Source: Candidatus Helarchaeota ASGARD archaeon Hel_GB_B
GTDB lineage: Archaea; Asgardarchaeota; Lokiarchaeia; Helarchaeales; HEL-GB-B
Length of the DNA stretch: 32,000 nucleotides
Assembly (NCBI GenBank): GCA_005191425.1
Contig: SUPR01000006.1
Span: 1 to 32,000 of the forward strand
Direction of reading: 5' to 3'
Shown: positions 5,457-30,676 of the stretch, in pieces
How the letters are laid out: each line of letters begins with the position of its first letter
Numbering within the stretch: the first letter of the stretch is position 1
Translations under genes and position numbers: made by a program
The notes under the pieces: model-generated
Databases searched by the model: none
What the model saw: the letters and a program-made list of their open reading frames with translations, nothing else
What the model was told of the DNA's origin: nothing

Positions 5457-7040
5457 TTAAAAGTTATGATATATAACTAATATTATATCGTCAATGGACT
5501 TCATTTTATTGACTAATTCATCAGATGGTTCTTGATCAGTTTTTAAGACCATTAACTGAGTCTTTGATTTTTCATGGCGAGCCACTTGTAATTCAGCAAT
5601 ATTAATGTTATTATTACCTAAAAAGGTGGTTATTTTACCAATCATACCAGGTTTATCGACATGTTTTATTATGAAAATTTTACCAGTTGGTGAAAATGAA
5701 ATATTGAAGTCATTTATTTTGATAATTTCAATATAACCATCGGAATATACTTTACCAATAATTTCAGAGGCGACTTTATTGTGGTCCATGATTTGAACGG
5801 ATAATAAATTTTCAAAACTTTTTCCACTTCTTACAGATTCAACGATCCCAAGATTACGTTCTTTTGCTATTAGAACTGAATTTACAATGCTAATTCTAGT
5901 ACTTACTAAAGGTTTTAAGAAGACAGCGAGGAAATGTCTTGTTAATGTTTTTCGGAGATTTTCTGGTAATGATTCTGGGTAATTAAGAATAATACTGTCA
6001 AAAGGAAGGTTTAATTTTACAAGTAATTTTGCTAAGTTTATAGATAATTGGCGATAGGGTGTATAGATATCCTTGGTCTCGCTATCTAATCTTGGGAAAT
6101 TAACTGGAAATTCAGGGGCTAGTCCATTAAGAACGTCAATTGTCCCTTCAAGAATTCTCCAGCTAACATTTTTTTGTGCATCAATAGTTGAAGCGCCTAT
6201 ATGAGGAGTGACAATTATTTTATCATTTTTAAGGAATTCTTCATTTTTTTCGAGAGATTTTTCGATTACATCTAGTCCTGCTGCCTTTACAATTCCTTCG
6301 TTTATTGCTCTTAATAGAGCCTCTGAATCTACAATACCGCCTCTAGATGTATTAATAAAATATACGCCTTTTTTCATCAATAAAAAATGTTCCCATTTTA
6401 TCAAATGGAATGTAGTTTTATTAAGAGGAACATGTATTGAAATAACATCAGATTTTCTCAATATATCCTCAAAACTGGTTAATTCAGTACCCAATTCATC
6501 TTTTAAATTTGACGAAATATAGGGGTCATATGCTAGGATTTTCATACCAAATGCTCTTGCTCTATGTGCAACTCGTCTTCCAATTCGGCCAAAACCAATA
6601 ATACCTAAGACTTTATTTCGCAATTCTAGGCCTGATAAATCTTTTCTATTAAAATTACATTCGGATGTTCTATTAACAGCTGTCTTAAAATGCCTACAAG
6701 TACTTATTATTAACCCCATTGCTAAATCTGCTACGCTATCAAGACTTTCTTCAGGTGCATTTATAACCAGAATACCCTTCTTTTCGGCATAATCTACATC
6801 AATATTATCAGTCCCAACACCTGCACGACCAATAACTTCTAAATTTTTACCAGCATCTAATAGTTCTCTGTCTACAATAGTTTTACTCCTTATAATTAAG
6901 GCATTGACATCTCCGATCTTTTCTAAAATTATCTTTCGGTTTGGGGTTCCATTTAATATAATAAATTCATAATTCGTTTTGTTTTTAAAATGGTCTATAG
7001 CTTCTTGGTCTAACTTTTCTGCAATTAAAATTTTTTTCAT
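5457..7040 (-). CDS. serA: D-3-phosphoglycerate dehydrogenase with ASB and ACT domains
   Basis: GRAGVGTDNID, GIIGFGRIG, INTSRGGIVD, TPHIGAST, and a C-terminal HVDKPGMIGKITTFLGNNNINIA (ACT). Confidence 0.95.
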   Translation of the reverse strand: MKKILIAEKLDQEAIDHFKNKTNYEFIILNGTPNRKIILEKIGDVNALIIRSKTIVDRELLDAGKNLEVIGRAGVGTDNIDVDYAEKKGILVINAPEESLDSVADLAMGLIISTCRHFKTAVNRTSECNFNRKDLSGLELRNKVLGIIGFGRIGRRVAHRARAFGMKILAYDPYISSNLKDELGTELTSFEDILRKSDVISIHVPLNKTTFHLIKWEHFLLMKKGVYFINTSRGGIVDSEALLRAINEGIVKAAGLDVIEKSLEKNEEFLKNDKIIVTPHIGASTIDAQKNVSWRILEGTIDVLNGLAPEFPVNFPRLDSETKDIYTPYRQLSINLAKLLVKLNLPFDSIILNYPESLPENLRKTLTRHFLAVFLKPLVSTRISIVNSVLIAKERNLGIVESVRSGKSFENLLSVQIMDHNKVASEIIGKVYSDGYIEIIKINDFNISFSPTGKIFIIKHVDKPGMIGKITTFLGNNNINIAELQVARHEKSKTQLMVLKTDQEPSDELVNKMKSIDDIILVIYHNF

Positions 7041-7168
7041 TTACAATCCAATCTTTAAATTTATTTTGATAATTTAATATAATAAGTAATTTTAATTTTT
7101 TGAACTCAAAAGTTATTAGTTATTAGTATTATTATAATGTCAAATTAAAAACTCTTTAACAAATTTAA

Positions 7169-9328
7169 ATGGTGATAATAATTCGAATATATAAATATTT
7201 TAAAGGAATTTTTCTGATTGTCGGTATAATACTAATGACAATAGGAGTTATATTGGGTGCTAACTTTAAATATAATTTATCTGGAGTAACATTTACACCA
7301 TTTCAAATATCTGCTTCGGAAACAGCGGCATATGGTAATTATGCTGCATATAATCAATCAGGAGTAGTAATTAGAGGAACAATTATTCAACCTAAAATTC
7401 CAGTCTATTCATCGGGAGGATTAAGGCCTGCGGTATTCTTTTTTCACGGGCTTTTTGCAAGAAAAGAATTTCATTATCATTATGCAATTGAGCTTGCTAG
7501 GGCAGGATTTGTAGTAATATGTCCAGATCATGGTGGAATGGGCGATTCTATCGGAACTTTCAAGTTGGGATGGGATATAATTCCATTTGTAATGACAGTA
7601 ATTGACCATTTACCAGCTCTTAACGCGACATATCACCTAAGAATTAATGGGAGCGCAGTAGGGGCTACTGGACATTCGTATGGTGGAATATCAACACTTT
7701 ATGCCGGGCTTTATCGACCATATAATAAGACCACAGGCAGAGGAGTTTCAGCTTGCGCTTCGATTTGGTCATGGTCAAATTTTACTCAGACAATTCAATA
7801 TATGGTATCAAATTATGGTGACCCTCCCTGGCAACTTCTTGAGCTAGTGAATTTACAATATATTCTGGCAGATCCTTATGGCGCTGATAATATGGCTGCA
7901 AATATTGAAGCTCGAAATACCATAGATAAGGTCAATGGGACTTCTGGAAATTATCTACCACCAAATTGGTTGTTAATTACATCTTGGGATGATGGATTTG
8001 TTCTACCCGAATGGCAAATAGAATTAATGGCTAATGCATGTTATGACAATTCCAATCCGTCATTAAGTTCATCTGTATACTATAATTATATTAAAAATAA
8101 CATAACATATGCTAATAATTTTACATGGCAAAAACCTGGTGGGTCATTTAAAAATAGGTCTATGAGGCAAATTTTCTTACCAAGAGATACATATGGATTC
8201 CCAATGGGCCATTTGACTGAAGGCTTTTTAGTACCACCATTAATAATGTTATTAAATTGGTTTGGAAATGCGTTTAACTGGAATGTATCAAATGAAATTT
8301 CAAGAATACAAGCTGAAGAAATTGATTTAAGCAGGACTATTTCATTTTGGCCGGCTCCAATTCAAGGACTAGTAATTCAAATGTATTTAGGACCTATATT
8401 AATAATATTAGGGCTCATTGTTTCGATTTTTCCAATAATTAGCTATTTGGCTAGAGGAAAGCGGTCTGATGATGAGTATCAAATATCACAATTTACATTT
8501 CCAAAAGGTACTTCATTATCTACAAAAGAATCTCTGGCATTTATTGCTATATTTAGTGCAATATATATCGGAATTTCTTTACCTTCATTGTTAATATCTA
8601 GCTATTTTAATATAAAGCTATTAATTCCATATTTGGTAGCAGACTCGCTTGCTTCAAGTTGGCTTATTAAAAGCTTAATTGGAATTGCTATATTAATACC
8701 AATTCTCTGGATTTATTTCAACAAGTATAATCAGAATTTTACTGATATTGGTATTTCGTTTGATAAAAAGAAATTACTATATTCTGCTATTGTGGGTATT
8801 GGATTTCCTCTGATTTTCTTTGGACTATGGGATTTATTGAACCTTTTCACTACATTTCCATTATTAATCCCTATGCCAAGTCCTACAGTCGGATATCTTG
8901 GATTTGCTATATTGCTATTGTTTATATTCATTTCTGCTATTATTGACGAGCTATTTTTAAGAGGATTAATACAAACAAAAATGGAAGCAAAAATACAGGA
9001 AAGTAACAGAATTACTCATAATAAGAGGATTAAAAAATGGATAGCATATTTTATTTCAGTGATTCTAAGTTTAATATTAACTTTAACAGCAACATTGGGT
9101 TCACTTATATTAACAGTAAGTCCAGCTGCTTTCCTAGGCAATATTGATGGTACAAATTTCGCAACCCCAATCTTACTTCTAGGTGTTATTGTTTCATTAG
9201 TCCCATCGATAGTCAATCCATATATCTATCAAAGAACTCGATCTATTTGGGCATGCGTATTCTTTACAACAATCTTCTTAGGTATATTTTTTACTTCTAG
9301 GCTTGGTCTAGGACTGACTACTTTCTAA
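7169..9328 (+). CDS. secreted-type alpha/beta hydrolase fused to a multi-TM, degenerate CPBP (CAAX protease/Abi)-like domain
   Basis: N-terminal TM/signal; FFHGLF, DHGGMGDS, GHSYGG, WDDGFV, GHLTE; about 9-10 hydrophobic segments after ~aa 410, containing IIDELFLRGLIQ and YIYQRTRSIW. Confidence 0.75.
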   Translation: MVIIIRIYKYFKGIFLIVGIILMTIGVILGANFKYNLSGVTFTPFQISASETAAYGNYAAYNQSGVVIRGTIIQPKIPVYSSGGLRPAVFFFHGLFARKEFHYHYAIELARAGFVVICPDHGGMGDSIGTFKLGWDIIPFVMTVIDHLPALNATYHLRINGSAVGATGHSYGGISTLYAGLYRPYNKTTGRGVSACASIWSWSNFTQTIQYMVSNYGDPPWQLLELVNLQYILADPYGADNMAANIEARNTIDKVNGTSGNYLPPNWLLITSWDDGFVLPEWQIELMANACYDNSNPSLSSSVYYNYIKNNITYANNFTWQKPGGSFKNRSMRQIFLPRDTYGFPMGHLTEGFLVPPLIMLLNWFGNAFNWNVSNEISRIQAEEIDLSRTISFWPAPIQGLVIQMYLGPILIILGLIVSIFPIISYLARGKRSDDEYQISQFTFPKGTSLSTKESLAFIAIFSAIYIGISLPSLLISSYFNIKLLIPYLVADSLASSWLIKSLIGIAILIPILWIYFNKYNQNFTDIGISFDKKKLLYSAIVGIGFPLIFFGLWDLLNLFTTFPLLIPMPSPTVGYLGFAILLLFIFISAIIDELFLRGLIQTKMEAKIQESNRITHNKRIKKWIAYFISVILSLILTLTATLGSLILTVSPAAFLGNIDGTNFATPILLLGVIVSLVPSIVNPYIYQRTRSIWACVFFTTIFLGIFFTSRLGLGLTTF

Positions 9329-9558
9329 AAAATACATAAAATTTTCATTTTATTTTTTTTTGTTTATGAAAAATGAATAAATTATCCAGTTTACCACTAT
9401 TTTTCAAATTATGTTTTCAAGAGTAAGAATACCAAAATCTTCGGTTTCTAAGATATTTAAAATAAATTGGTTTATTAATTATGTAAAAATTATTATTAAA
9501 TCGAAAAAGTAAAATTAAAATAAATTAGATAAGATAAAATTATGCTTATTTTAATTTA

Positions 9559-10911
9559 TTAGGTTAATTTTTCCAATGCATTTAACATTGGATCATTTAA
9601 TAGAGTTAGAGGGGGTGTATAGCAACGTTCGGTTTTAAGTAAAGACCCAATTGGGATTTTCTCGCGGATTACAATTGTTAATTCATTTATTCGTTCTTTT
9701 ACATCTTTTTCTCCAATAATTTGAGCGCCTATTAATTTGTTATTACGCGCAAGAAATTTAAATTTGAGGTTTTTCCAATCGGGAATATATTTTGATTGGG
9801 ATGCCCCTTCAGAAGTAGAAACTTTATATGAAATCCCAAAACTTTTAGCTGCATATTCTGTTAGTCCAACAGATCCGACTTCTAGCCCACCAAGATATGT
9901 AACAGATGGACTTATTGTACCTAAATATTCCGATTTTTTACCAATTATATTTTTTACAATTGTTTTACTTTGCATTATTGCAGTTGAAGCTAAAGCACTT
10001 CGCATCGGCTTTTCCGTAATCAAGTTTTTTGTTTCAATACAATCACCCAGTGCAAATACGTTTTCAATTGGCCGGTTATTTTTTAATATATGTAATCTTT
10101 CATCTACCTTAATACCACCAGTTTTTCCAATATCGATCCCAGTCTTTTTTATTATACTAACATTCGGTCTAATACCTACTGCAAGTAAGACTAAATCGGT
10201 AGGAATTTCTTTATCAGACTCTAATATTACAGATTTAACTTGATCGGTGCCATCAAATTCTTTGACTTTTACCCCTGTGATAATTTCAATTCCTTTATTT
10301 CTGAGCCATTCTTCAACTATAATCCCCATGTCTAGATCAAGCATAGCTGGTAATACGGATGGGGTCAGTTCAACTACTGTTGTTTTAATATTATTAGCAG
10401 CAAATGCAACAGCTGCTTCAAGCCCAATTAATCCCGCACCAACTATGACAGCTTTTTCACATTGTGTCATAGCTTCTTTAAGCATTACGCCATTCGAATA
10501 ATTCATTAGTGTATAGATTCTTTTAAGCCCGGTTCCTTTGATTTCTGGTGTGAATGGAACCCTTCCAGTAGCAATTACTAAGAAATCAAATTCTAACTGG
10601 TCGACTTTTCCTTCCTTACTAAACGTTTTGACTTGTTTGTTAGTATAGTCAATGTCTATAACTGTAGTATTAGTTAATATTTTAACATTTTTTTCATCAA
10701 AAAATTCAGGTCTGTGTAAAATTATATCTTCAAACTTTTCAACGACTCCTTCTAATACATATGGAATACCGCAAGTCGAATATGCATATTGTTTTTCTCG
10801 AGTAATACAAGTGATATCAAAATCATTGAATTTCATCAGCCCATAAATTACATTCATACCAGCTATACCACTACCAATAACTATGACCTTTTTTTTCTTC
10901 TCTTGTGACAT
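9559..10911 (-). CDS. FAD-dependent pyridine nucleotide-disulfide oxidoreductase (NADH oxidase / CoA-disulfide reductase family)
   Basis: VIGSGIAG, YSTCGIPY (redox Cys), LVIATG, IVGAGLIGLEAA, VFALGDC, and C-terminal YTPPL. Confidence 0.92.
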   Translation of the reverse strand: MSQEKKKKVIVIGSGIAGMNVIYGLMKFNDFDITCITREKQYAYSTCGIPYVLEGVVEKFEDIILHRPEFFDEKNVKILTNTTVIDIDYTNKQVKTFSKEGKVDQLEFDFLVIATGRVPFTPEIKGTGLKRIYTLMNYSNGVMLKEAMTQCEKAVIVGAGLIGLEAAVAFAANNIKTTVVELTPSVLPAMLDLDMGIIVEEWLRNKGIEIITGVKVKEFDGTDQVKSVILESDKEIPTDLVLLAVGIRPNVSIIKKTGIDIGKTGGIKVDERLHILKNNRPIENVFALGDCIETKNLITEKPMRSALASTAIMQSKTIVKNIIGKKSEYLGTISPSVTYLGGLEVGSVGLTEYAAKSFGISYKVSTSEGASQSKYIPDWKNLKFKFLARNNKLIGAQIIGEKDVKERINELTIVIREKIPIGSLLKTERCYTPPLTLLNDPMLNALEKLT

Positions 10912-11180
10912 TCAATTAACACCATTCATCATTTATTGAAAAAAAATTACTCAATTTAAAAGTCACAAAACATTATTTATCATTTTTTCGAACATTTTTT
11001 ACCATATTATTTAATTTATTAAAAAAGTTGATACTTTTTCTAAATTATTTTAAATATGGAAAATATTTACGAGATTATCACCTCGTGAACATAATAATTA
11101 TCATATAAAATTTTTCAGTACAAAGAAAACAAAGCATCTGTTAAATAAATTGAAAAAAATTGAATGAAAAACATAAAAAA

Positions 11181-11858
11181 TTATGAAGTTAAACTATTAT
11201 TTATCTTTATAATTAATTCTCGTGATAATTTATCCGCCAGATATAATGGTTCAGGAATTCTATGAACGGGCTTAATCAATTCAATTACAATATTTATGGC
11301 AGTTTCTAAATCAATTAAATTTCCGACCGAAATATAAATGGGTTTCCCAGTATTAGGTTTTAGTATTGCACCTAAAATTTTGCCATTAAACGTAATATAT
11401 GCCCAATTATTAGGACGGTCGGGGATATGTTCTGCTTTACCCACGAACTTTGATTTTCCGATCCCTATTGTTGATTTATGTATGATAACACCAAGATGTG
11501 CAGCACTACCAAATAATCTTGGATGAAGAATTCCAAATCCATCCACTAAAATAAGGTCTGGTTTCTTTTTCAACGATAATAAAACTTTTCTAAAATAAGG
11601 TACCTCTCTAAATCCTAAAAATCCAGATATATAGGGAAATTTAGCTTCATATTCAAAATATTTTTTCTCAATTATTTTTTCTCCAGAAATATCAGTCGAT
11701 ACTGCCATTACTACCGCAATGTTTGATTTTTTAGAATATGAAATATCTACACCAGTTATAATTTTTGGTGAAAAATCATTAGGAATTTCTTTAATTACCT
11801 TTTTTGATAGTAACTTTTGAATTTTGATTAATTTGTTTAAATTGATTTCTTTTTCCAA
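11181..11858 (-). CDS. nfi: endonuclease V
   Basis: GVDISY, FPYISGFLGFREVP, LVDGFGILHPRLFGSAAHLG, IGIGKS, KPIYISVGN, RIPEPLYLAD. TTG start. Confidence 0.95.
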   Translation of the reverse strand: MEKEINLNKLIKIQKLLSKKVIKEIPNDFSPKIITGVDISYSKKSNIAVVMAVSTDISGEKIIEKKYFEYEAKFPYISGFLGFREVPYFRKVLLSLKKKPDLILVDGFGILHPRLFGSAAHLGVIIHKSTIGIGKSKFVGKAEHIPDRPNNWAYITFNGKILGAILKPNTGKPIYISVGNLIDLETAINIVIELIKPVHRIPEPLYLADKLSRELIIKINNSLTS

Positions 11859-11968
11859 TTTTGGTCATAAAAAATAATATTTCAAAACATTTTAAACATT
11901 ATTGAAAACATCAATCCTAATTAAAAATAGAATAATAAAAATTAAAAATTGATTATAACTATGGTTTA

Positions 11969-12784
11969 CTACTTACCTTTGAATACAGCTTCACGTTTTT
12001 CTTTTAAAGCTTTGATGGATTCTGTAAAATCAAAAGTTGTGGCGGCTTTATTTAGGCCTTTATTTTCCATATCCAATGCATTAGAAACAAAATCAATTAG
12101 CGGTTTATGTAATGCCCGTTTCATTAATTTCAATGCAAGACTGGGCCCTTTAGGGGGTATTAATCGCATAGCCTGTTCACGTGCAAAAGGCATAAGTTCA
12201 TCTTTTGGTAGTACCTTATTTATTAGACCTAGTTCATAAGCTTGCTGGGCAGTGATTTTATCTCCAAAATAAATTAATTCTTTAGTCTTTTGAAAACCAA
12301 TATAATAAGGTAAAAGCCAAGTTGTAGCAAATTCAGGTAGAATTGCTCGCTTTACAAAATATAGTCCAATCCAAGCATCTTCAGCCATATAAATTAAATC
12401 ACAACAAGTTAATGGCATGGTAAATCCAGCGCCCACAGCAAGCCCATTAATTGCAGCGATAACTGGTTTTTCAAAATTCCAGAATTTTAAGCATAACTTT
12501 TTTTGGGCGATATCAGTTATTTCAATTTCTTCTTTAAGTTCAGGTGGTATTTGCTCAAACATTTTCATATTAAAATATCCACCTGATGAAAATGCGTCCC
12601 CAGCACCAGTAATAATCATTACTTTTGCACTCCTATCTTTTTTCATAATATCGACAGCATACCATAATTCCAGAAAAGTTACTGGGCTCATTGCATTTTT
12701 CCTTGAAGGAATATTTAAAGTTACTGTAACAATACCATTTTCATCTTTTTCATAAATTATATCTTTAAAATCTTCGACCTTCAT
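11969..12784 (-). CDS. enoyl-CoA hydratase/isomerase (crotonase) family protein
   Basis: TLNIPSRKNAM, ITGAGDAFSSGG, KPVIAAINGLAVGAG, ILPEF, ITAQQAYELGLINKV. The usual first catalytic Glu (GGGxE) is replaced (GAGFT). Confidence 0.92.
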   Translation of the reverse strand: MKVEDFKDIIYEKDENGIVTVTLNIPSRKNAMSPVTFLELWYAVDIMKKDRSAKVMIITGAGDAFSSGGYFNMKMFEQIPPELKEEIEITDIAQKKLCLKFWNFEKPVIAAINGLAVGAGFTMPLTCCDLIYMAEDAWIGLYFVKRAILPEFATTWLLPYYIGFQKTKELIYFGDKITAQQAYELGLINKVLPKDELMPFAREQAMRLIPPKGPSLALKLMKRALHKPLIDFVSNALDMENKGLNKAATTFDFTESIKALKEKREAVFKGK

Positions 12785-13055
12785 TTTAGTTCACTCATAT
12801 CCTAAAATTTTCTATAATATTAATAATATAATTTTAAAATCATTAGAAATTTTTATTTATCCTTTAGATGTTGATTTGAAAAATCTTTTGATTTTATTAT
12901 CAAATTTTATATTAGAAAAGATATTTTACTTAACTTAAAAATAGACTTTAGAACGGACTTTTATTTAAGAAATAAAGTAAAAATTAGAAATTAAATAAAA
13001 ATATTAAATTTTAATAGAAATATAATTATTTTGATTGTATTTGTTTTAAAAAATA

Positions 13056-13544
13056 TTATCCTATTTTCTTATTACTTTTAAAAGAAGAAAACAACTTTTT
13101 AAAGAACCCTTTTTCTGTTGTACTAATTTTAGAAACATAATTTTTAATTTGCTCTCTTAGTAAGATTTCATAAGGAGCAAAAACATCTTGGTATGATCCT
13201 TCGTTATTTAGTTCATCCTTAAAAATCTCATAGAAAGTATCTAATGCCTCTTCAGCTTCTTTATGAAGATCAACTTTTTTAATATCGGACGACATTATCG
13301 CAATAATAATTAAATTGTGTTTAGTTGCAATATACATGTCTACATCTAATCCTTTGATCATGATCTCTTCAATTCTGCCAAGATTCTCCTTTCCAAAAAT
13401 ATGTAAAGCCGAAACAAAAGCTGGAATTAAAGTTGAATTAATACTCTCATCATTTAGCACTTGGACTAATGGAATGCCATTATCCTTGGCTATTATAATT
13501 CCTTTTATCATTTTATCTCTATCTTCTATATTATTCATCTTCAT
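13056..13544 (-). CDS. stand-alone longin-like domain protein (Asgard type)
   Basis: IKGIIIAKDNGIPLV...LIPAFVSALHIFGKE...IEEIMI...LIIIAIM...EEALDTFYEIF fits the beta-beta-alpha-beta-beta-beta-alpha longin/profilin-like pattern. Confidence 0.65.
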   Translation of the reverse strand: MKMNNIEDRDKMIKGIIIAKDNGIPLVQVLNDESINSTLIPAFVSALHIFGKENLGRIEEIMIKGLDVDMYIATKHNLIIIAIMSSDIKKVDLHKEAEEALDTFYEIFKDELNNEGSYQDVFAPYEILLREQIKNYVSKISTTEKGFFKKLFSSFKSNKKIG

Positions 13545-13901
13545 TACATTTTGTAGATTTTAATCTTTTAACTTGAAGATAATCGAAAAGATATTTTTAA
13601 ATTTTAAGATAAATTTTAGCATAAAATTTTTAAAATTTTAAAATTTTTTTGGGGGAAGATAAAATTAATAACAAATTTTTAACAACATTATGGTAAATTG
13701 AAATCTTTCCTAGCATTGAAGAATAACGAAAAATGATATTTATTTTCTAAAAATTTTTAATAATTTTTAATTAATTTGTATAATTTTGAATAAAAAAAGA
13801 GAAAAATCGTAAAAAATTAAGAAAATAATTATTATTTCAAAATCATTTTATAAACATATATTTAGTAAAACTAAAGAAAAAATATGGAAATAATAGTAAA
13901 A

Positions 13902-14483
13902 TTAGCCCATTAATCCTAGATCAAAGTCATATTCATCTGCAAGAACATCAAGTAAAGGTCTGATAGCCATTGCTTTTGTCATGTCACCTTCTAATTGGAT
14001 TTCGCCAGACATGTAAGCTTGCATTGCATCTAAATCACCAGTAGCCATTTTCATAAAAGTACTTTCGTCCATCTTGATTTTTAGGCTGGCGTCTTCAATA
14101 TCTCCTTCACCTGCACTGAACTTTCCTTCTTCGATCTTCATATAGATATTAACATTCATATCTGGTACAGATATTACGATAGTCATATCATCAATGTCTT
14201 CTAATTCTTCTTGAGCTTCTTCACTTGCTTCTAATAATTCTTGCATTCCTTTGAACATTACGGGTAAAAATTTTGGAATGATTTCTTTTAAGTCATCTGA
14301 AGACAAGTCAGCAATTTTTTCTCTCATTGAAGGCAAAAAGTCTTTAAGGTCATCGTCCTTTACTATATTTAAGAATCCTACTTTCTCGGTCATATCGATT
14401 ACTTTTAAAATCTTATCCTTTGAGAGTCCTTCTTCTAAATCTTTTATTAAGCTTTTATATTCATCCAAACTCATAAATACCAC
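13902..14483 (-). CDS. SCP2 sterol/lipid-binding domain protein with an acidic helical N-terminus
   Basis: C-terminal YMKIEEGKFSAGEG..DASLKIKMDESTFMKMATGDLDAMQAYMSGEIQLEGDMTKAM is the typical SCP2 pattern. Confidence 0.88.
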   Translation of the reverse strand: MVFMSLDEYKSLIKDLEEGLSKDKILKVIDMTEKVGFLNIVKDDDLKDFLPSMREKIADLSSDDLKEIIPKFLPVMFKGMQELLEASEEAQEELEDIDDMTIVISVPDMNVNIYMKIEEGKFSAGEGDIEDASLKIKMDESTFMKMATGDLDAMQAYMSGEIQLEGDMTKAMAIRPLLDVLADEYDFDLGLMG

Positions 14484-14601: not shown

Positions 14602-15522
14602 TTATATTTCAGGTGCCCATTCAATTTTCTCAAGGTATTCAATTAAATTTTTAATCATATTTTGATGAAATTCATCATCACTGTATGGTCCAAGGCTATC
14701 TAATAAATTTTTCAAGAATTCTTTGTTTTCTTCATCTCTTTGTTGCATTACAAGTTTATAGTCTAATAACAACGTAAGAGTTTCTTGTAATTCACTTATC
14801 ATTTTCTGAGATTTTTCCAGTTCTTGTTCTAATTTTTTAATTTTGGAATTGAGTTCATTTTCAATTCTTTGACGTTCTAACTTTTTTTCTAATGCTAACT
14901 TAATATGAAGCATTGAATCTTTAGATTTTAGTTTTTGAGTTAATTCGTTTATTGTTTCTTTAAGTAAATTAATCGTAACATCTCTATCATTAAGTTTTTC
15001 TTTTAATTTCTCATTCTCTTCTTTAATTTTATCTAATTCGGTTTTTGTCGATAATATTATCTGGAGTTCATCTTCATTTATTTTGATTTTATCATTGATT
15101 AGTATATCATACAATTTTGGAAGAGTCTCAATATACGACTTTCCAATTTTAGCTAAAACTTCTTTTTCAGTTGTGGTCCTGGCATCGAACCGTTCTAAAG
15201 GTAGTTCTCCTAGCACAATTTTTGCACCTAATGGTAATGTTTTTGTATAATTCTTTTTATCTTCATTTTTGTCCAGTAGTAAAGAAATTGCAAAATTTGG
15301 AGCGATATAATAATTAGCTGTTATTAAACCTGAAAAAAAACTAATTACATTCAGGTTTTTTAATTTTAATGTAATAACATTTGCATCTAATTGTCGCATT
15401 CGGTGTAAACTCCCAATTCTCATTATTTCATCTTCAGTGATTTTCAAATTTTCAGGATATTTATGAATTAAGAAAAAACCTTCTTTATTAGTCCAACCTA
15501 TTAAAATTATTCCTTTAGGCAT
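14602..15522 (-). CDS. longin/uDENN-like N-terminal domain plus a long coiled coil
   Basis: MPKGIILIGWTNKEGFFLIHKYPE (W-x4-G-x6-YP)...VISFFSG...AISLLLDKNED; residues ~150-255 are an E/K/L-rich heptad region. Confidence 0.6.
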   Translation of the reverse strand: MPKGIILIGWTNKEGFFLIHKYPENLKITEDEIMRIGSLHRMRQLDANVITLKLKNLNVISFFSGLITANYYIAPNFAISLLLDKNEDKKNYTKTLPLGAKIVLGELPLERFDARTTTEKEVLAKIGKSYIETLPKLYDILINDKIKINEDELQIILSTKTELDKIKEENEKLKEKLNDRDVTINLLKETINELTQKLKSKDSMLHIKLALEKKLERQRIENELNSKIKKLEQELEKSQKMISELQETLTLLLDYKLVMQQRDEENKEFLKNLLDSLGPYSDDEFHQNMIKNLIEYLEKIEWAPEI

Positions 15523-21313: not shown

Positions 21314-21572
21314 ATAATCATCTCTTTTTTTAAATCTTCTATTTTTATTAAGTTAAAATACTTTTTTAGCTTTAAAAACCTTGTGAATTTAGGTCATTTA
21401 TTACTTAATTGTTAATCAATTGGGTATTTAATTGAAAATATTTTCTAAAATTCTTTTATATTATTTTTCACACAATTTTTTATTGAATTAGTAAGAAAGA
21501 ATATGAAAAATAATTAGAAGCATAATTTTGATAATTTTAAACTTATGTACTAATGTTATCATAGTGAAAATA

Positions 21573-22364
21573 ATGAAATCTAATAAAATAATAACAGGAA
21601 TTCAAGGATTTGATGAGTTGATTGAAGGTGGGCTAAATGAATGCGATTCTATACTGTTAATTGGGGGGCCTGGGACAGGTAAAACAATATTTGGACTTCA
21701 ATATATAGTTAATGGAATAAAATATTATAATGAGGCTGGACTGATTGTGCTATTGAAAAATCAAATAGAAGAAATTCGTTTAAAATTAAATTATTTCGGT
21801 TTAAATTTAGATAAATTAATAAATCGAAATCAACTGAATATACTTGATGTATCACCAATTATTACATTGATGGAAAATGGAAATTATAAAATAAAAATAA
21901 AAAATGAGTCAGATACATTAATTGGTGATAAAGATTTTAATATACGAGAGATAATTTCAAGTATTCACCTTAAAAGGAGAAAAATTGAATTTAAAAGGGT
22001 TTTAATTGATTCTTTAATGCCATTATTACTAAAATATGATGATTCATTTCTTTTTATGACTGAATTTGAATTATTATTAAAATCTTTAAAAAAAGCCAAT
22101 ATGACTTCACTGATTTTAACTGAAAATAGTTTTAATAACGATAATTTAAAAATAGCAACACATTTGGTAGATGGAGTAATAAAACTGACATTATCAAGAT
22201 ATGGAAATACTAAAATTAGATATTTGGACATTATTAAAATGTCGAACTTGGGCCATATCTTAGCTACCAAATTATTTGATATTTCAGAACTAGGTATCAA
22301 AATTTTATCTGATAAAAAGATTTCACTAAATGAATCAATTGAAACACTTGATTTAAAGGTATAA
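21573..22364 (+). CDS. single-domain KaiC/RAD55-like RecA-fold ATPase, apparently degenerate; start revised from 21528 to ATG 21573
   Basis: TGIQGFDELIEGGL, GGPGTGKT (Walker A), RVLIDSL (Walker B), VDGVIKL, RYLDIIKM. Confidence 0.85.
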   Translation: MKSNKIITGIQGFDELIEGGLNECDSILLIGGPGTGKTIFGLQYIVNGIKYYNEAGLIVLLKNQIEEIRLKLNYFGLNLDKLINRNQLNILDVSPIITLMENGNYKIKIKNESDTLIGDKDFNIREIISSIHLKRRKIEFKRVLIDSLMPLLLKYDDSFLFMTEFELLLKSLKKANMTSLILTENSFNNDNLKIATHLVDGVIKLTLSRYGNTKIRYLDIIKMSNLGHILATKLFDISELGIKILSDKKISLNESIETLDLKV

Positions 22365-22375
22365 GTGAGTATAAT

Positions 22376-23350
22376 ATGATCTGCATAGTAATATCATTTT
22401 TTGATAATATAAATGGACCAAGACCTTTATTAAGCATTCCAAATACATTAAATGATATAGATCTAAATAATATAGCTTCATTAATTGACAAAACCTTTGA
22501 GACAGGATTTTTTATTTATGAATTTCCTGAATATAAGACTGCTAATTATTTTTTTGAGATTGAATCCGAATGGGCTCGTGGAAACAAAGAAATGGTACTA
22601 TTAACCATTGTATTTGATTTGAATTTTGATTATAATTCATTGGATTTACAGACTATTATGAATGATTTTATAAATGAATTGTCCAATATTACTAACCTAT
22701 TTAAAGCATTTTATATTTTTGATTTTAATAGAAAAAAGGACAATGAAGTTAAATTTTATTATGAAAAATTGAAGGAACTTATTATAGATTTTAAAGGTTC
22801 TCTTCCAAAAGAAACTCTGGCAGTAAACCAGAATCAAATTAAAATTTTTGTTTTTGGACTTGATAGAGCAGGAAAATCTACTATACTAAATCGAGCGAAA
22901 ACCAATTTATTTGTTAAGACCTCTCCGACCATAAATTTGAATATAATGCACCTTTTATTTGGTAATATTCAACTTGATTGTTTTGATGTGAGTGGTCAAA
23001 AGCGATATCGATATACTTGGCGGAGGTTTATAGTTTCATCCCAGTATTTAGTTTTCGTATTAGATGTTAACAGAGAAGATAGATATGAAGAAGCAAAAAT
23101 TGAATTGTGGAAGGTCTTAAGTTATGAAGAAAGTAAAGGTATTCCGTTACTAATATTAATTAATAAGACAGACTTAAAAAAGAAAATAGACTTGAATTAT
23201 TTTATAAATTTTTTAAATTTGTATAAGATTAAGGACAGAAAATGGCATATTATGTCTACATCTGCATTATATAATCAAGGAATAAAAGAAGCATTTGAAT
23301 ATATAATAAAAGATTTATTGTCTAACCAATTAACAATGTTTTCTATGTGA
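22376..23350 (+). CDS. uDENN/longin-like domain fused to an Arf-like small GTPase
   Basis: N-terminal SFFDNINGPRPLLSIP...FEIESEWARGNKEMVLL. GTPase motifs GLDRAGKST, PTINLN, FDVSGQKRYRYTW, NKTD, TSALYNQGIKEAF. Confidence 0.88.
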   Translation: MICIVISFFDNINGPRPLLSIPNTLNDIDLNNIASLIDKTFETGFFIYEFPEYKTANYFFEIESEWARGNKEMVLLTIVFDLNFDYNSLDLQTIMNDFINELSNITNLFKAFYIFDFNRKKDNEVKFYYEKLKELIIDFKGSLPKETLAVNQNQIKIFVFGLDRAGKSTILNRAKTNLFVKTSPTINLNIMHLLFGNIQLDCFDVSGQKRYRYTWRRFIVSSQYLVFVLDVNREDRYEEAKIELWKVLSYEESKGIPLLILINKTDLKKKIDLNYFINFLNLYKIKDRKWHIMSTSALYNQGIKEAFEYIIKDLLSNQLTMFSM

Positions 23351-23377
23351 AAAAAATTTTAATTTATTTTTAATTTG

Positions 23378-23911
23378 TTATTTTTGAATTTGTGAGATTG
23401 TCATTAATATTTTTTTTCCCAAATTTTTGAATGCTAAATCAATATTTTCCCCTGTTTTAGCTGAAGTTTCTAAAAATTCAATTCTAAGTTCTTGTGCTAA
23501 TTTTTCGCCTTCACTTTTAGTGATCATTCGTTGTTCTGTTAAATCAACTTTATTTCCAACTAATATCATGGGAATTTTATGTCCTACATTTACCATTAAA
23601 CGAGAGAACCACTCTTTTACAGCATCAAAAGTATTTCTACGTGTAATATCATAAACTATTAATGCAGCTTCTGCTTTACCATAAAAACGCTTTGCCATAT
23701 TTTGAAAAAGGTTTTGCCCACCAATATCCCAGATAACAAATGTTAATTCAGTGTCCAGGTCTTCGAATAAATATTCTTTTGCCATAATATTGACGCCCAT
23801 AGTACTTTTATAATCATGAATAAATTTGTGATGGACAAATGAATTGAGAACCGCAGTTTTTCCTACCATATATGACCCAATTATTATTACTTTTTTCTTA
23901 ATTTTAATCAT
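23378..23911 (-). CDS. Rab-like small GTPase without a C-terminal prenylation Cys
   Basis: GSYMVGKT, YKSTMGVN, WDIGGQ, FYGKAEAALIVYDIT, GNKVDL, ETSAKTG. Its start overlaps the upstream stop (ATGA, 23908-23911). Confidence 0.93.
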   Translation of the reverse strand: MIKIKKKVIIIGSYMVGKTAVLNSFVHHKFIHDYKSTMGVNIMAKEYLFEDLDTELTFVIWDIGGQNLFQNMAKRFYGKAEAALIVYDITRRNTFDAVKEWFSRLMVNVGHKIPMILVGNKVDLTEQRMITKSEGEKLAQELRIEFLETSAKTGENIDLAFKNLGKKILMTISQIQK

Positions 23912-24903
23912 TTAAATTCCTCCCTTCTAGAAATCTGGTTTATTGGCCTTAATAACGAATAATATTTGTAAATGGGTTTAATGCTAAGTGAATTTTTGAC
24001 AATATTTGCTTTGCAGTCCAAACATTGGTAGAATTCATTCAATTCTTTAAAATATTTCTTACATTTTAAACAATAATGATAATGTCCTAATCTTTGATAG
24101 TCTACTCCTTCAGTTTCTAATTTAAGATTACATTTCATACAAATCATATCATTTTTTATGAACTCATTTTCAAAATCAATATGTCCACATTTAAAGTGTT
24201 CAATAATATTACCTTCAATTATCGTAGATGAATTACAAATTGGACAAATTTTCGATGTTTTAAGATGACTTGATCCACATGAAGGACAAACAACTAAATT
24301 ATCGACCATATATTTTCCTACTATATTTTGTTTTTCCAATTCTTTTAACAAATCTTCGGCTTTAATAGAATTTCCAGCAATTTGTTCCAACTTAGGATAA
24401 TGGACACCATGTATATAATCATATTGGGGAGTAAAAATCGTAGATGGATTTTTTTCTAGAAATTTGACTACTTTGGAAATTTTATACGCTATAATGGGAC
24501 TTACAGGACAATTATTAATTTCGGATATTTTACTCGCTTTTTCAACTATTTCATTAAATAATTGTGGAATAATTTCGTGAGCTTTATCTAAATTTTGGAT
24601 AATTTTATAAAATTGCTCTTTTAAAATTGGTTTAAAAAATCTTGGTGTTTCATTTTCTTCAAGAATTAACATCAAAAGTAAATTATTTTCCCTGCCGCCA
24701 TAATAACATGCGATATGAAATTCATCTGTAAAAAGGGCAGAGAATCGTTCAGTAGTAATATCACCCATTGTCTGAGAGGTAAAAATAAATAATACTTTTT
24801 CTGTATTAAAAACTTTTTTAATCTCATCATCATCTGGATAAATTTCATCTAGTATTGCTCCTATACTATCGTCCCAATGAATTAAAGCTAGTCCGATTGG
24901 CAT
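23908..24903 (-). CDS. longin/uDENN-like N-terminal domain fused to a multi-zinc-ribbon TackOD1-like domain; start likely ATG 24903
   Basis: MPIGLALIHWDDSIGAILDEIYP at the N-terminus. C-terminal HYPKL...CPSC..CPIC..IEHFKCGH..CMKC..GVDY..CLKC..CLDC (11 Cys). Confidence 0.75.
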   Translation of the reverse strand: MPIGLALIHWDDSIGAILDEIYPDDDEIKKVFNTEKVLFIFTSQTMGDITTERFSALFTDEFHIACYYGGRENNLLLMLILEENETPRFFKPILKEQFYKIIQNLDKAHEIIPQLFNEIVEKASKISEINNCPVSPIIAYKISKVVKFLEKNPSTIFTPQYDYIHGVHYPKLEQIAGNSIKAEDLLKELEKQNIVGKYMVDNLVVCPSCGSSHLKTSKICPICNSSTIIEGNIIEHFKCGHIDFENEFIKNDMICMKCNLKLETEGVDYQRLGHYHYCLKCKKYFKELNEFYQCLDCKANIVKNSLSIKPIYKYYSLLRPINQISRREEFK

Positions 24904-25146
24904 TTTTATTTTCAAGAGTTTTTTTAAAATAAATCAATAAAGTTAATTAATATTTACTATAAATTTAGTTTTCAGATGTTATTCATTAATCAAATTAATT
25001 AATATTTTTTTTATCTAAATTTTTGTGAAAATTTGTTGAAAGTCCGTTTTAAGTTCATTATAAATTCTAAAATAAATCTTTAAATTCTATAACATTCAAC
25101 TTATTCTAAACTTAAATTGTCAAAAGTTTAGAAGGATGTTCAATCT

Positions 25147-29431: not shown

Positions 29432-30676
29432 TTAGGTTATTAAATTAGCAATCCAAGGGATTAAGATATCATCATTTTTTATATAGAATTTTTCTGTATT
29501 TTTATGTATACTTGCGAAGAAAACTAATTTATTGTTTAAAAAGCGTTTGATTATAGTAAGAATTTTTTGTCTATCCAAATTAATATCAATTGAATCAATA
29601 TTTTGAAATCTTCCATAATAAAAGATCTCGATATTTAAATTTGAGAGAAAATTTATTAAATAATTATAAAGGTCATTACATATTTCGTCATTTTCAGCCC
29701 AATATCCTAGTTTTAAACATGAACTGTCCATTAGTAATATATTATTTGTCCCAATTTTTTCAGCTTGCTCCCTTAATATATTATTTATAACAAATTTAAC
29801 ATCTTTATTAGCTATTTGTAAAATAGCGTGGGAAAAAAGATTGAAGATTGTCATGTCATCAAATATAGAGGTGATATAAAATTTAAAATTGAAATTCTCT
29901 TCTTTAATTAGAAATTTTATTTCATTTTTCATTTTTTCTAATTTTAAATTGATTTCACGATTGTCTTTAATATTAGGGTCCATTTTGTGGAAACAGATGA
30001 TAATATATGGTTCTTCACTCAAATAATTGTAAATTTTTAAAATGTTTTTTAGATATTCAAGGTTTTCTCCAAATCTATTAGATTGTACATCAATTACATA
30101 AATAACTACGTTAGTACCCACAAAAACCCGATGTGGCTGATTTAAATATTGGGTTCGATATTTTTTTTGCCCGCCCAAATCCCATAATTGAATATCACAG
30201 TAATTTATATCAAATTTTTCGCGTTCAATTCCTTTTGTTGGTTTTAATAAATTTAATGCTTTTAAAAATTCAATGTAATTTTTTTCGTATTTATTAAAGA
30301 ATCGATTTCTTATTGCTGTTTTTCCTGCATTATCAAGCCCAAATAAGTTTATTTTTTTAATATTTTTATTATGTTTATTATCTATTTGCGAAATTAGTTT
30401 AGCTATAATCACATATCTCTCAAATTCAAATCGGTCTATATTTAATTCATTTGAAATTCTATCAATATCATCAATTTCAAGTTTTAATAAATCTTTGATT
30501 TTAAAGATATGAAAGTTTTCTTGGAGAATTTGAGCGATATTTGGACTTATTTCTTTAATTTCAATAATAGATTTATTTAAAATATCTTCTTTTGACACTT
30601 TTTCTTGTAAAGAAATTTTGAAAAATGAATTTATTCGTTGAAATAAATCATCTGATTTTAATGTATTTAATACCAA
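29432..30676 (-). CDS. HhH-like domain + Rag/Gtr-like small GTPase + roadblock-like C-terminal domain
   Basis: IIEIKEISPNIAQILQENFHIFKIKDL; GLDNAGKT, KPTKG, WDLGGQ, CFHKMD, ITSIFD; C-terminal INNILREQAEKIGTNNILLMD. Confidence 0.8.
   Translation of the reverse strand: MVLNTLKSDDLFQRINSFFKISLQEKVSKEDILNKSIIEIKEISPNIAQILQENFHIFKIKDLLKLEIDDIDRISNELNIDRFEFERYVIIAKLISQIDNKHNKNIKKINLFGLDNAGKTAIRNRFFNKYEKNYIEFLKALNLLKPTKGIEREKFDINYCDIQLWDLGGQKKYRTQYLNQPHRVFVGTNVVIYVIDVQSNRFGENLEYLKNILKIYNYLSEEPYIIICFHKMDPNIKDNREINLKLEKMKNEIKFLIKEENFNFKFYITSIFDDMTIFNLFSHAILQIANKDVKFVINNILREQAEKIGTNNILLMDSSCLKLGYWAENDEICNDLYNYLINFLSNLNIEIFYYGRFQNIDSIDINLDRQKILTIIKRFLNNKLVFFASIHKNTEKFYIKNDDILIPWIANLIT

Follow-up and report, generated by a model that had tools for sequence, protein, structure and literature searches.

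The Asgard archaeon Candidatus Helarchaeota Hel_GB_B encodes a compact block of four genes that combines a KaiC-like ATPase, two small GTPases, two longin domains and the signalling output domain TackOD1. The reading that we favour, with a confidence that stops at evenly balanced, is that this block is one conserved Asgard signal-transduction unit constituted of two convergent two-gene operons. It occupies positions 21573-24903 of a 32,000-nucleotide stretch of the genome (positions 1 to 32,000 of contig SUPR01000006.1, GenBank assembly GCA_005191425.1), referred to below as the window, and codes in order for the KaiC-like ATPase (g1), a longin-Arf fusion protein (g2), a Rab-like GTPase (g3) and a longin-TackOD1 fusion protein (g4). 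As these four families recur in differing orders in distant Asgard lineages, they probably act as one signalling unit. Their linkage is not due to chance, and it is conserved but modular; what this view builds on, namely the identities of the domains, their folds and motifs and the conserved linkage of the genes, is established.

Both the list of open reading frames (ORFs) with their translations and a direct reading of the sequence show four ORFs in the interval. The stop codon of g1 is separated by 11 bp from the start of g2, and the convergent genes g2 and g3 have their stop codons 27 bp apart, on either side of an A/T-only spacer that is a putative bidirectional archaeal terminator. On the opposite strand, g4 and g3 are translationally coupled, with the TGA stop codon of g4 overlapping the ATG of g3 as ATGA and a GGGAGG motif just 5' of this overlap. 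A first-pass annotation, made from the letters alone, had described the same layout and had assigned domains to all four products, including the two longin/uDENN-like ones; the layout is upheld by the ORF list and the direct reading, and the domain calls agree with matches to Pfam and to longin-fold structures.

Conserved linkage of the four gene families in Asgard archaea

A relative with 62-77% protein identity (locus L006) keeps the entire neighbourhood, which by itself provides little information, and the informative evidence therefore comes from contexts in which the genes have been rearranged. In a further Helarchaeales genome (G123), genes for a short TackOD1 protein, a longin-Arf protein, a longin-TackOD1 protein and a Rab follow one another in this order on one strand, with a gene for a TackOD1-HTH_AsnC (helix-turn-helix) protein on the opposite strand. 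In Meg19_1012_Bin_504 (G128; loci L008 and L047), a longin-TackOD1 gene followed by a Rab gene is convergent with a row of GTPase and two-component genes, which encodes a RagA-like GTPase, a longin-Arf protein, another RagA-like GTPase, an unannotated 168-residue protein, a response regulator and a histidine kinase, with no KaiC. The cluster in Hel_GB_A (L007) comprises genes for a stand-alone longin, a Ras, two Arf-like GTPases, a KaiC, a TackOD1-AsnC protein, a short TackOD1 protein and a longin-Arf protein, and a cluster of the same type is found on a JGI contig. Ca. Freyarchaeum, which belongs to another class, encodes within about 9 kb a RagA/Arf-like GTPase, a TackOD1-AsnC protein, a KaiC/GvpD-like ATPase, a KaiC, a Rab and a longin-TackOD1 protein that bears a C-terminal extension. 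In G310 a KaiC gene is convergent with a longin-TackOD1 gene. Further afield, in Odinarchaeum yellowstonii, Atabeyarchaeia-1, 'Ca. Asgardarchaeum' and family f19, a TackOD1 gene is immediately preceded by one for a Rab. The linkage of the four genes proposed in the first-pass annotation is thus borne out in related genomes: the same families are found together, in rearranged form, in other Helarchaeales and in Freyarchaeia, and the Rab-TackOD1 pair is present in at least six Asgard lineages. As a background level, 3.1% of the ORFs of the source genome have a small GTPase as their immediate neighbour. A locus search with five close sequences returned three Helarchaeales loci, none of them additional to those already identified.

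Several of these clusters also contain a protein in which an Lrp/AsnC-type helix-turn-helix and a ligand-binding domain are fused to TackOD1. Such proteins, of 367-372 residues, are encoded at L046:522-1634 (-) in G123 and at L007:5887-7005 (-) in Hel_GB_A, and the gene of this type in Freyarchaeum is at L052:3439-4539 (-). Directly after the TackOD1-Lrp/AsnC gene in G123 and Hel_GB_A there is a gene for a family of about 231 residues without a Pfam match, with members of 267-285 residues in Freyarchaeia; this family is absent from the source genome. In one Freyarchaeial genome (G122), the KaiC and Rab genes stand on either side of a gene for a 196-residue Roadblock/LC7 protein (L049:1615-2202, +).

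The strongest competitor, a real though minority possibility, is that g4-g3 and g1-g2 are two independent pairs, set tail to tail by way of loose Asgard signalling islands. The two pairs are indeed convergent, each with its own upstream region, and each also turns up without the other: Rab-TackOD1 alone in Odinarchaeum, Atabeyarchaeia, f8 and f19, a KaiC gene followed by an Arf-like GTPase gene alone on contig C109 of the same genome, and longin-Arf with TPR proteins in Lokiarchaeia. Against such independence, wherever the contig that bears a g4-type gene is of sufficient length, a g2-type longin-Arf gene is found within about 5 kb of it, in differing orders and orientations (window, L006, G123, G128 and G125). 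Likewise, KaiC, Rab and longin-TackOD1 are found together again in Freyarchaeia, with an Arf partner of a different architecture. Moreover, the KaiC subfamily of g1 occurs only in clusters of this kind in the neighbourhoods examined: its gene lies inside a GTPase/TackOD1 cluster in four of four (window, Hel_GB_A, and the Freyarchaeia G117 and G122). Close relatives of g1 (E<=1e-40) are encoded by just 7 of 400 Asgard genomes, namely the window's own, Hel_GB_A and five of six Freyarchaeia.

One apparent exception to the linkage was considered and rejected. The block seemed to be missing from a genome of the same genus (G126). Two contigs of that assembly, C29 and C279 (loci L110-L113), end on either side of it, at points that map to about 19816 and about 25179 of the window and that flank the block together with an oxidoreductase gene. 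The block is accordingly unassembled there, and this genome does not count as evidence of its absence.

Domain architectures and motifs of the encoded proteins

The C-terminal part of g4 (residues 143-314) matches Pfam TackOD1 (PF18551) at 2.5e-35, with 122.2 bits against a cut-off of 32. TackOD1 is a response-regulator output domain of obscure function, and its cysteine pattern has been described as five CXXC and one HXXC motifs (Galperin et al. 2018, PMC5847659). The residues of g4 conform to this pattern: an alignment shows C206/C209, C220/C223, C239, C255/C258, C278/C281 and C294 to be invariant and C297 to be nearly so, and in the Helarchaeales members H236 precedes C239. The structural model of g4 has a predicted local distance difference test score (pLDDT) of 86.9 overall and about 90 in the TackOD1 part, whose matches in the Atlas are all TackOD1 clusters. 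An exhaustive search of 1.84 billion representatives yielded 1912 TackOD1 relatives; among the best 150 of these, only about six clusters match along the whole of g4. A word-indexed search for fused 'Rosetta stone' versions of g4 above 580 residues in length found none, which is weak evidence.

Response-regulator receiver (REC) sequences are absent from g4, which shows no Pfam match to Response_reg, while TackOD1 proteins of the same size elsewhere have the architectures REC-TackOD1, REC-TackOD1-GGDEF or TackOD1-GGDEF. Given that in g4 the place of REC is taken by a longin domain, and that the gene next door codes for a GTPase and not a kinase, we interpret g4 as an analogue of a response regulator under GTPase control; it may work like one, but is not one.

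A conserved stretch of about 150 residues without a Pfam match extends the C-terminus of some TackOD1 proteins (P0003, P0017 at L052:10001-11407, and L020-L023); these extended forms include the Freyarchaeial longin-TackOD1 proteins of 469-511 residues and a metagenomic form of 412 residues. In one Atlas cluster of TackOD1 proteins, 51% of the members have an Mrr_cat nuclease domain, which makes it possible that the extensions of about 150 residues are also a nuclease-like module. This bears on the idea of a conflict or defence system, in which the KaiC-like NTPase and the GTPases sense infection and the zinc-ribbon protein targets nucleic acid. The Mrr_cat cluster, the extensions on the Freyarchaeial and P0003 forms, and the patchy phyletic pattern of the g1 subfamily speak in favour of this idea, which we nevertheless regard as very improbable: the g4 of the window has no nuclease part, PADLOC gives weak P-loop matches only, the GC content of the block is the same as that of its surroundings, and the flanks are housekeeping metabolism genes that are syntenic in the relative at 62-77% protein identity.

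The N-terminal domains of both g2 and g4 adopt a predicted longin fold. Residues 1-142 of g2 show the β-β-α-β-β-β-α-α order of secondary structure elements that is seen in this fold, a sandwich of about 120-140 residues, in a model with a pLDDT of about 90 over residues 1-140; the g4 model shows the longin secondary structure over residues 1-128. In the Atlas, this domain matches longin clusters with template-modelling (TM) scores of 0.72-0.88, and, in terms of named families, NPR2 (0.74), folliculin (0.72-0.75) and SMCR8-like proteins (0.74). With VIA-align, residues 1-130 of g4 match a Lokiarchaeal longin (Z 11.9), NPRL2 of GATOR1 (11.4), VAMP7 (11.3), FLCN-FNIP2 (10.9) and DENND1A (10.3), followed by C9orf72-SMCR8 (9.9), Asgard Roadblocks (8.5) and MglB (8.1). 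The matches at Z 10-12, which also include the Sec22 longin, align 108-127 residues, and Foldseek recovers the same longin families. Comparison of the two by hhalign shows homology (probability 94%, E 1.5e-7). Searches with both domains and five relatives gave no Pfam match of Folliculin, NPR2 or C9orf72-like type even at E<=10, and profile searches of PDB sequences with the two domains returned no sequence of the FLCN, NPRL2, SMCR8 or C9orf72 families. Hence, their likeness to these proteins is one of fold and motif.

This motif lies at the β1-β2 turn, where both longins contain the sequence [WF]DxxxG[PA]. A 2025 survey (PMC12290439) has found that longins of the GTPase-activating protein (GAP) type, namely FLCN, NPRL2, SMCR8 and C9orf72, combine a GP motif at this turn with a neighbouring arginine finger, and that the GP motif is also present in some Asgard longins and is not seen in those of TRAPP, adaptin and DENND. 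According to the same survey, SMCR8, FLCN and NPRL2 have the arginine finger next to the GP motif, C9orf72 has a WD ahead of it, and the CSW pocket is formed by W33-D34 of C9orf72, just before G38-P39, and R147 of SMCR8 (PMC12290439). In g2 the motif is F9-D10-x3-G14-P15, at the start of the strand spanning residues 14-21, with G14 invariant in the family and P15 nearly so. In g4 it is W10-D11-x3-G15-A16, and the spacing from W10-D11 to G15 equals that of W33-D34...G38-P39 in C9orf72. Most relatives of g4 have WDxxxGP; G15 is nearly invariant and mostly followed by P, with A in the g4 of the window, in P0002 and in the G128 protein, and f19 relatives have F-D in the place of W-D. Additionally, the g2-type longins have an invariant A67-R68-G69 in the β4-β5 loop (11 of 11 sequences, including Lokiarchaeial ones). 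By the strand topology of the model, this loop is at the same edge of the sheet as the β1-β2 turn, which makes R68 a candidate for the role of arginine finger. Between them, the g2 and g4 longins thus have candidates for the two motifs by which the halves of eukaryotic longin GAPs are recognised.

A related arrangement is seen in Lokiarchaeia, where the genes homologous to g2 (29-33% identity) have no TackOD1 or KaiC gene in their vicinity and are flanked by genes for TPR proteins of 670 and 690 residues. At three loci (L011:3611-8741, L013:4178-10862 and L015:9007-13603), the longin-Arf gene lies between or beside the genes for such proteins, which begin with a WDxxxGP segment; the 690-residue set has 'EVRG' where g2 has 'WARG'. 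In the Atlas, the N-terminal 165 residues of one of these TPR proteins match models of SMCR8-like proteins, folliculin and C9orf72 with TM scores of 0.69-0.74. Profile-profile comparison gives a weak match of these N-termini to the g4 longin (probability 25%, E 7.5e-4, 33 columns) and a probability of 5% for the g2 longin, so that their assignment as longins is based on the Atlas structure match and the motif. If this holds, the juxtaposition of a longin-Arf gene with a gene for a second FLCN/SMCR8-type longin fused to another domain would be class-wide, with this domain being TPR in Lokiarchaeales and TackOD1 in Helarchaeales, and would provide the best indirect backing for the heterodimerisation of the two longins that the first-pass annotation had put forward as a possibility.

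The g4 type of longin is expanded in the source genome, with nine paralogues whose C-termini are coiled-coil, TPR or of unknown type. A GTPase gene adjoins three of these nine genes. On contig C163 (G000, 10817..12301; L070), a gene for a Rab of 185 residues is followed after 6 bp by one for a longin protein of 308 residues. On C4 (G000, 6782..9436; L069), an Arf/Rag-like GTPase of 422 residues is followed by a longin protein of 375 residues. The C-terminal domains of both longin proteins show no Pfam match.

The remainder of g2 is an Arf-family GTPase: residues 148-313 match Pfam Arf (PF00025) at 5.3e-43, with 146.9 bits versus 54 bits for Ras, and contain the G motifs GLDRAGKS, T185, DVSGQ, NKTD and TSA. 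An alignment of the family shows G161, G166, K167, T185, D204, G207, Q208, N263, K264 and D266 to be invariant. By structure, this domain matches Arf6 (Z 23.7, 31% identity) and HodArfR1 (Z 19.6); by sequence, the top PDB match is 8oun_A (9e-30), titled just 'GTP-binding protein', followed by Arf1 and Arl5. The product of g3 matches Pfam Ras (PF00071) at 2e-47 with intact G motifs, which are invariant across an alignment of 14 TackOD1-linked Rabs that includes g3 itself. Its best PDB sequence match is a Thorarchaeota Rab (7ezb, 5e-35), followed by Rab6, Rab26, Ypt51, Rab14 and Rab7. Among the Rab-like genes of G128 (44), Odinarchaeum (9) and G100 (21), the best match of g3 is in each case the TackOD1-adjacent paralogue, and in Atabeyarchaeia and Freyarchaeum the TackOD1-adjacent Rab ranks fourth.

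These affinities raise the question of whether the block is a piece of eukaryote-like membrane-traffic machinery, with GTPases that mark or remodel membranes, longins that act as guanine nucleotide exchange factors (GEFs) or GAPs, and KaiC and TackOD1 as incidental neighbours. The nearest solved relatives (Arf1, Arf6 and Asgard ArfR for g2; Rab6, Rab7 and Rab14 for g3) would be in keeping with this, as would the matches of the longin folds to TRAPP, DENN, Mon1-Ccz1 and adaptor subunits, and certain Asgard Arf proteins are reported to bind membranes in yeast (10.1101/2024.02.28.582541, PMC11914678). However, the features of membrane attachment are missing from both GTPases. The g2 protein begins M-I-C straight into longin strand 1, and has neither the N-terminal amphipathic helix of Arf, whose place is taken by the longin, nor Gly2; a C-terminal cysteine for prenylation is absent from g3, which ends in ...TISQIQK, and from the 13 other aligned TackOD1-linked Rabs. 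Furthermore, the neighbours that recur are signalling proteins (KaiC, histidine kinase plus response regulator, TackOD1-Lrp/AsnC), and the window contains no coat, SNARE or ESCRT gene. We thus consider a role in membrane traffic improbable. Since the four proteins are all small and lack predicted features for anchoring in membranes, direct expression and assay should be feasible.

The g1 protein is a single-domain RecA-type P-loop ATPase with the Walker A motif GGPGTGKT, and matches Pfam KaiC (PF06745) at 4.3e-47, with 160.9 bits against a cut-off of 26.6. In sequence alignments, it is matched by the CI domain of KaiC (3e-31) and by KaiC residues 20-247 (about 1e-27), and also by the archaeal single-domain proteins PH0284 and PH0186. 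The duplicated CI-CII architecture of clock KaiC, of about 500 residues, is absent from its single domain of 263 residues: g1 is KaiC-like, and is not a clock KaiC. The source genome has a paralogous pair of the g1>g2 type on contig C109 (G000, 12743..14404; L072:1744-3405), in which a gene for a KaiC-like ATPase of 259 residues is followed after 15 bp by one for an Arf-like GTPase of 290 residues with an N-terminal extension of about 120 residues.

A proposed GTPase-controlled signalling unit, its precedents and its weak points

As regards the physical contacts between the proteins, the direction of the signal and the choice between GAP and GEF activity, we infer the following scheme. The g4>g3 operon would encode a 'GTPase-dependent response regulator' together with its GTPase: the longin of g4 would dock g3 as a GAP, a GEF or a reader of its GTP state and would thereby control TackOD1, which in turn would hand the signal onward. 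The TackOD1-Lrp/AsnC transcription factors in the related clusters suggest transcription as the final output there. The g1 ATPase would presumably supply an ATP-dependent input or act as a timer, and would be swapped for a histidine kinase and a response regulator in G128. Finally, the longins of g2 and g4 might pair in the manner of SMCR8-C9orf72, FLCN-FNIP and NPRL2-NPRL3 and form a GAP-like pocket. Such pairing could cross-regulate GTP hydrolysis on the Arf-like and/or the Rab-like GTPase, merging both operons into one switch. A complex prediction for full-length g4 with g3, run without controls, scored 0.00 against a mark of 0.32 and speaks neither for nor against binding.

A bolder form of this proposal, which we offer tentatively and think rather doubtful, makes the block an archaeal counterpart of the two-longin GAP complexes, with its client GTPases encoded in cis, gated by KaiC and read out in relatives through TackOD1-Lrp/AsnC. 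The arginine-bearing longin-Arf protein would then be one subunit, the longin-TackOD1 protein with its WD-GP motif the other, and the Rab-like GTPase the client. If true, the longin-GAP logic of eukaryotic nutrient sensing would have arisen in Asgard archaea as a cytosolic gene-regulatory switch, before membrane attachment.

Several observations weigh against the block being a single unit that works in this way. The versions of the cluster examined in G128 and G123 lack KaiC, with G128 having a histidine kinase and a response regulator instead, and we therefore take KaiC to be an accessory part and not part of the core. Outside Helarchaeales, longin-Arf is not found beside TackOD1. The Rab-linked TackOD1 proteins of Odinarchaeum, Atabeyarchaeia and f8 have no detectable longin, so that the contact with Rab could be made via TackOD1 and not via the longin. 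In Thorarchaeia, the longin-like TackOD1 genes lie beside a gene for an unrelated methanopterin enzyme, with neither Rab nor KaiC next to them, and some f19 copies of TackOD1 likewise have neither neighbour. The source genome itself has no TackOD1-Lrp/AsnC protein. With respect to the motifs, the g4 of the window has G-A instead of G-P, the arginine in its β4-β5 loop (R71) is not conserved among its relatives, and the placement of R68 of g2 next to the GP turn is a deduction from strand topology.

The phylogeny of the Rabs adds to these points. In a tree of 62 sequences, none of them eukaryotic, the Rabs linked to TackOD1 in Helarchaeales fall on one side of a branch with 95% support in the Shimodaira-Hasegawa-like approximate likelihood ratio test (SH-aLRT), and the remainder is unresolved. 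A single clade of all 14 TackOD1-linked Rabs was not recovered, and is marginally rejected by the approximately unbiased test (p-AU 0.036). The pairing of Rab with TackOD1 is thus either old, with turnover of the partners, or has been assembled more than once. In light of the marginal rejection we describe it as recurrent, and claim no single origin.

Among known systems, the eukaryotic longin GAPs (C9orf72-SMCR8(-WDR41), FLCN-FNIP and NPRL2-NPRL3 of GATOR1) have in common with the g2 and g4 longins the fold class and the position of the GP turn, and their clients are GTPases of the Arf/Rag and Rab type, like those encoded in the block. They differ in that the longins of the block have no DENN or other C-terminal domain of that kind and are fused to a GTPase (g2) or to TackOD1 (g4). 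Also, the eukaryotic complexes function in a lysosome/mTOR context that has no equivalent here, and sequence methods find no relation between the two. The REC-TackOD1 response regulators of Thaumarchaeota and some bacteria (PMC5847659) resemble g4 in TackOD1, in overall size and in an N-terminal regulatory domain of about 130 residues, but in g4 the receiver is a longin and not REC, and the partner gene codes for a Rab-like GTPase and not a histidine kinase. Pairs of the MglA-MglB type likewise couple the gene for a small GTPase to that for a protein of Roadblock/longin/profilin fold. The block is distinguished from them by having a longin and not a Roadblock, an extra output domain, and two GTPases plus an ATPase, and by the lack of a polarity or motility context.

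Closer precedents come from Asgard archaea themselves. Liu et al. (10.1101/2020.10.19.343400) have reported an Asgard operon that combines a LAMTOR1-like protein, a Rab-like GTPase and a DENN protein, as well as an NPRL2-like longin fused to two-component-system domains. These neighbourhoods, as far as that text describes them, resemble the block in joining a Rab-like GTPase to longin or DENN regulators and in wiring longins into prokaryotic signalling; the partners are different here (KaiC, longin-Arf and TackOD1), and TackOD1 and KaiC are not named in the main text of that work, Figure 5c aside. Asgard fusions of longin with GTPase and of Roadblock with GTPase are also on record (Tran et al. 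2024, PMC10933270), and g2, with a longin N-terminal to an Arf/Rag-like GTPase, has the architecture described there. The same study states that in MK-D1 the genes for GTPases do not as a rule share operons with longin or Roadblock genes, so that genome layout does not reveal which regulator belongs to which GTPase (PMC10933270), in contrast to the block, where GTPase and longin genes are together in a conserved arrangement. Archaeal KaiC-like ATPases have been regarded as hubs of signal transduction (Makarova et al. 2017, as cited in PMC5847659), and on that cited account g1 resembles them as a single-domain KaiC-family ATPase encoded together with signalling proteins.

The separate parts of the block have been published, and what appears to be new is the conserved neighbourhood. 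The first-pass annotation had known of no description of the arrangement, which stands for the neighbourhood and fails for the parts, given the published longin-GTPase fusions (PMC10933270 and Liu et al.), NPRL2-like longin/two-component fusions and Asgard longins with a GP motif. A literature search that took in neither Makarova et al. 2017 nor Figure 5c of Liu et al. found no description of the Rab-TackOD1 pair, of a dedicated KaiC subfamily or of the four-family cluster. It retrieved no paper that joins 'Asgard', 'KaiC' and 'small GTPase', and just one that mentions 'TackOD1'.

Asgard genomes encode Ras-superfamily GTPases by the dozen, and longin and Roadblock proteins in similar abundance, and published work holds that genome layout does not allow the two to be matched (PMC10933270). 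The block, conserved across Asgard classes, is an exception: it nominates a cognate set of one Rab-like GTPase, one Arf-like GTPase and two longins of the FLCN/SMCR8 type. It also allows one to ask, in a testable form, whether the longin mechanism of folliculin, GATOR1 and C9orf72-SMCR8, with its GP motif and arginine finger, existed before eukaryotes, and offers a first functional context, that of GTPase signalling, for TackOD1 and for one subfamily of KaiC-like ATPases. Should the proteins not interact, the block would be a lineage-restricted signalling island of ordinary interest.

Locus features and neighbouring genes

The coordinates of the genes, domains and intergenic regions of the block are collected in Table 1. 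The source genome has a size of 3.54 Mb and an estimated completeness of 93.7%, and its 3124 ORFs include 50 small GTPases and a single bona fide TackOD1 gene. The GC content of the window is about 27%. The genes around the block are those of ordinary metabolism, coding for an aldehyde:ferredoxin oxidoreductase (upstream of g1), an epimerase, an adenylate kinase and a homocysteine-biosynthesis enzyme.

Table 1. Features of the four-gene block, in coordinates of the window
Feature	Position	Strand	Description
Intergenic region upstream of g1	21314..21572	+	259 bp, AT-rich; previous gene ends at 21313; presumed promoter of the g1-g2 operon
g1, KaiC-like	21573..22364	+	263 aa from ATG; earliest possible start is TTG at 21528
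g2, longin-Arf	22376..23350	+	324 aa
g2 N-terminal domain, aa 1-147	22376..22816	+	FLCN/SMCR8/NPRL2-type longin (uDENN-like)
g2 C-terminal domain	22817..23350	+	Arf-family small GTPase, G1-G5 intact
Spacer	23351..23377	both strands	27 bp, A/T only, T-runs on either strand (direct reading); putative terminator
g3, Rab-like	23378..23911	-	177 aa
g4, longin-TackOD1	23908..24903	-	331 aa from ATG; TTG at 24915 possible
g4 C-terminal domain, aa 143-314	23962..24477	-	TackOD1: helical/winged-helix-like part, then Cys-rich triple zinc-ribbon part
g4 N-terminal domain, aa 1-132	24508..24903	-	FLCN/SMCR8/NPRL2-type longin
Intergenic region upstream of g4	24904..25146	-	243 bp, AT-rich; divergent, common to the adenylate kinase gene; presumed promoter of the g4-g3 operon

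Three further genes of the window are of note. At 4.5 kb from the block, positions 29432..30676 (-) code for a Gtr1/RagA-like GTPase of 414 residues (Pfam Gtr1_RagA, 1.8e-27), extended at its N-terminus by about 100 residues, and this gene is kept in the syntenic relative (L006). The 306-residue product of 14602..15522 (-) matches the g4-type longin profile at its N-terminus (2e-15), followed by a coiled-coil-like region, and its gene is the third in the window for a longin of the FLCN/SMCR8 type. Lastly, a 719-residue protein encoded at 7169..9328 (+) combines an α/β-hydrolase domain with a C-terminal Rce1-like CAAX-protease domain.

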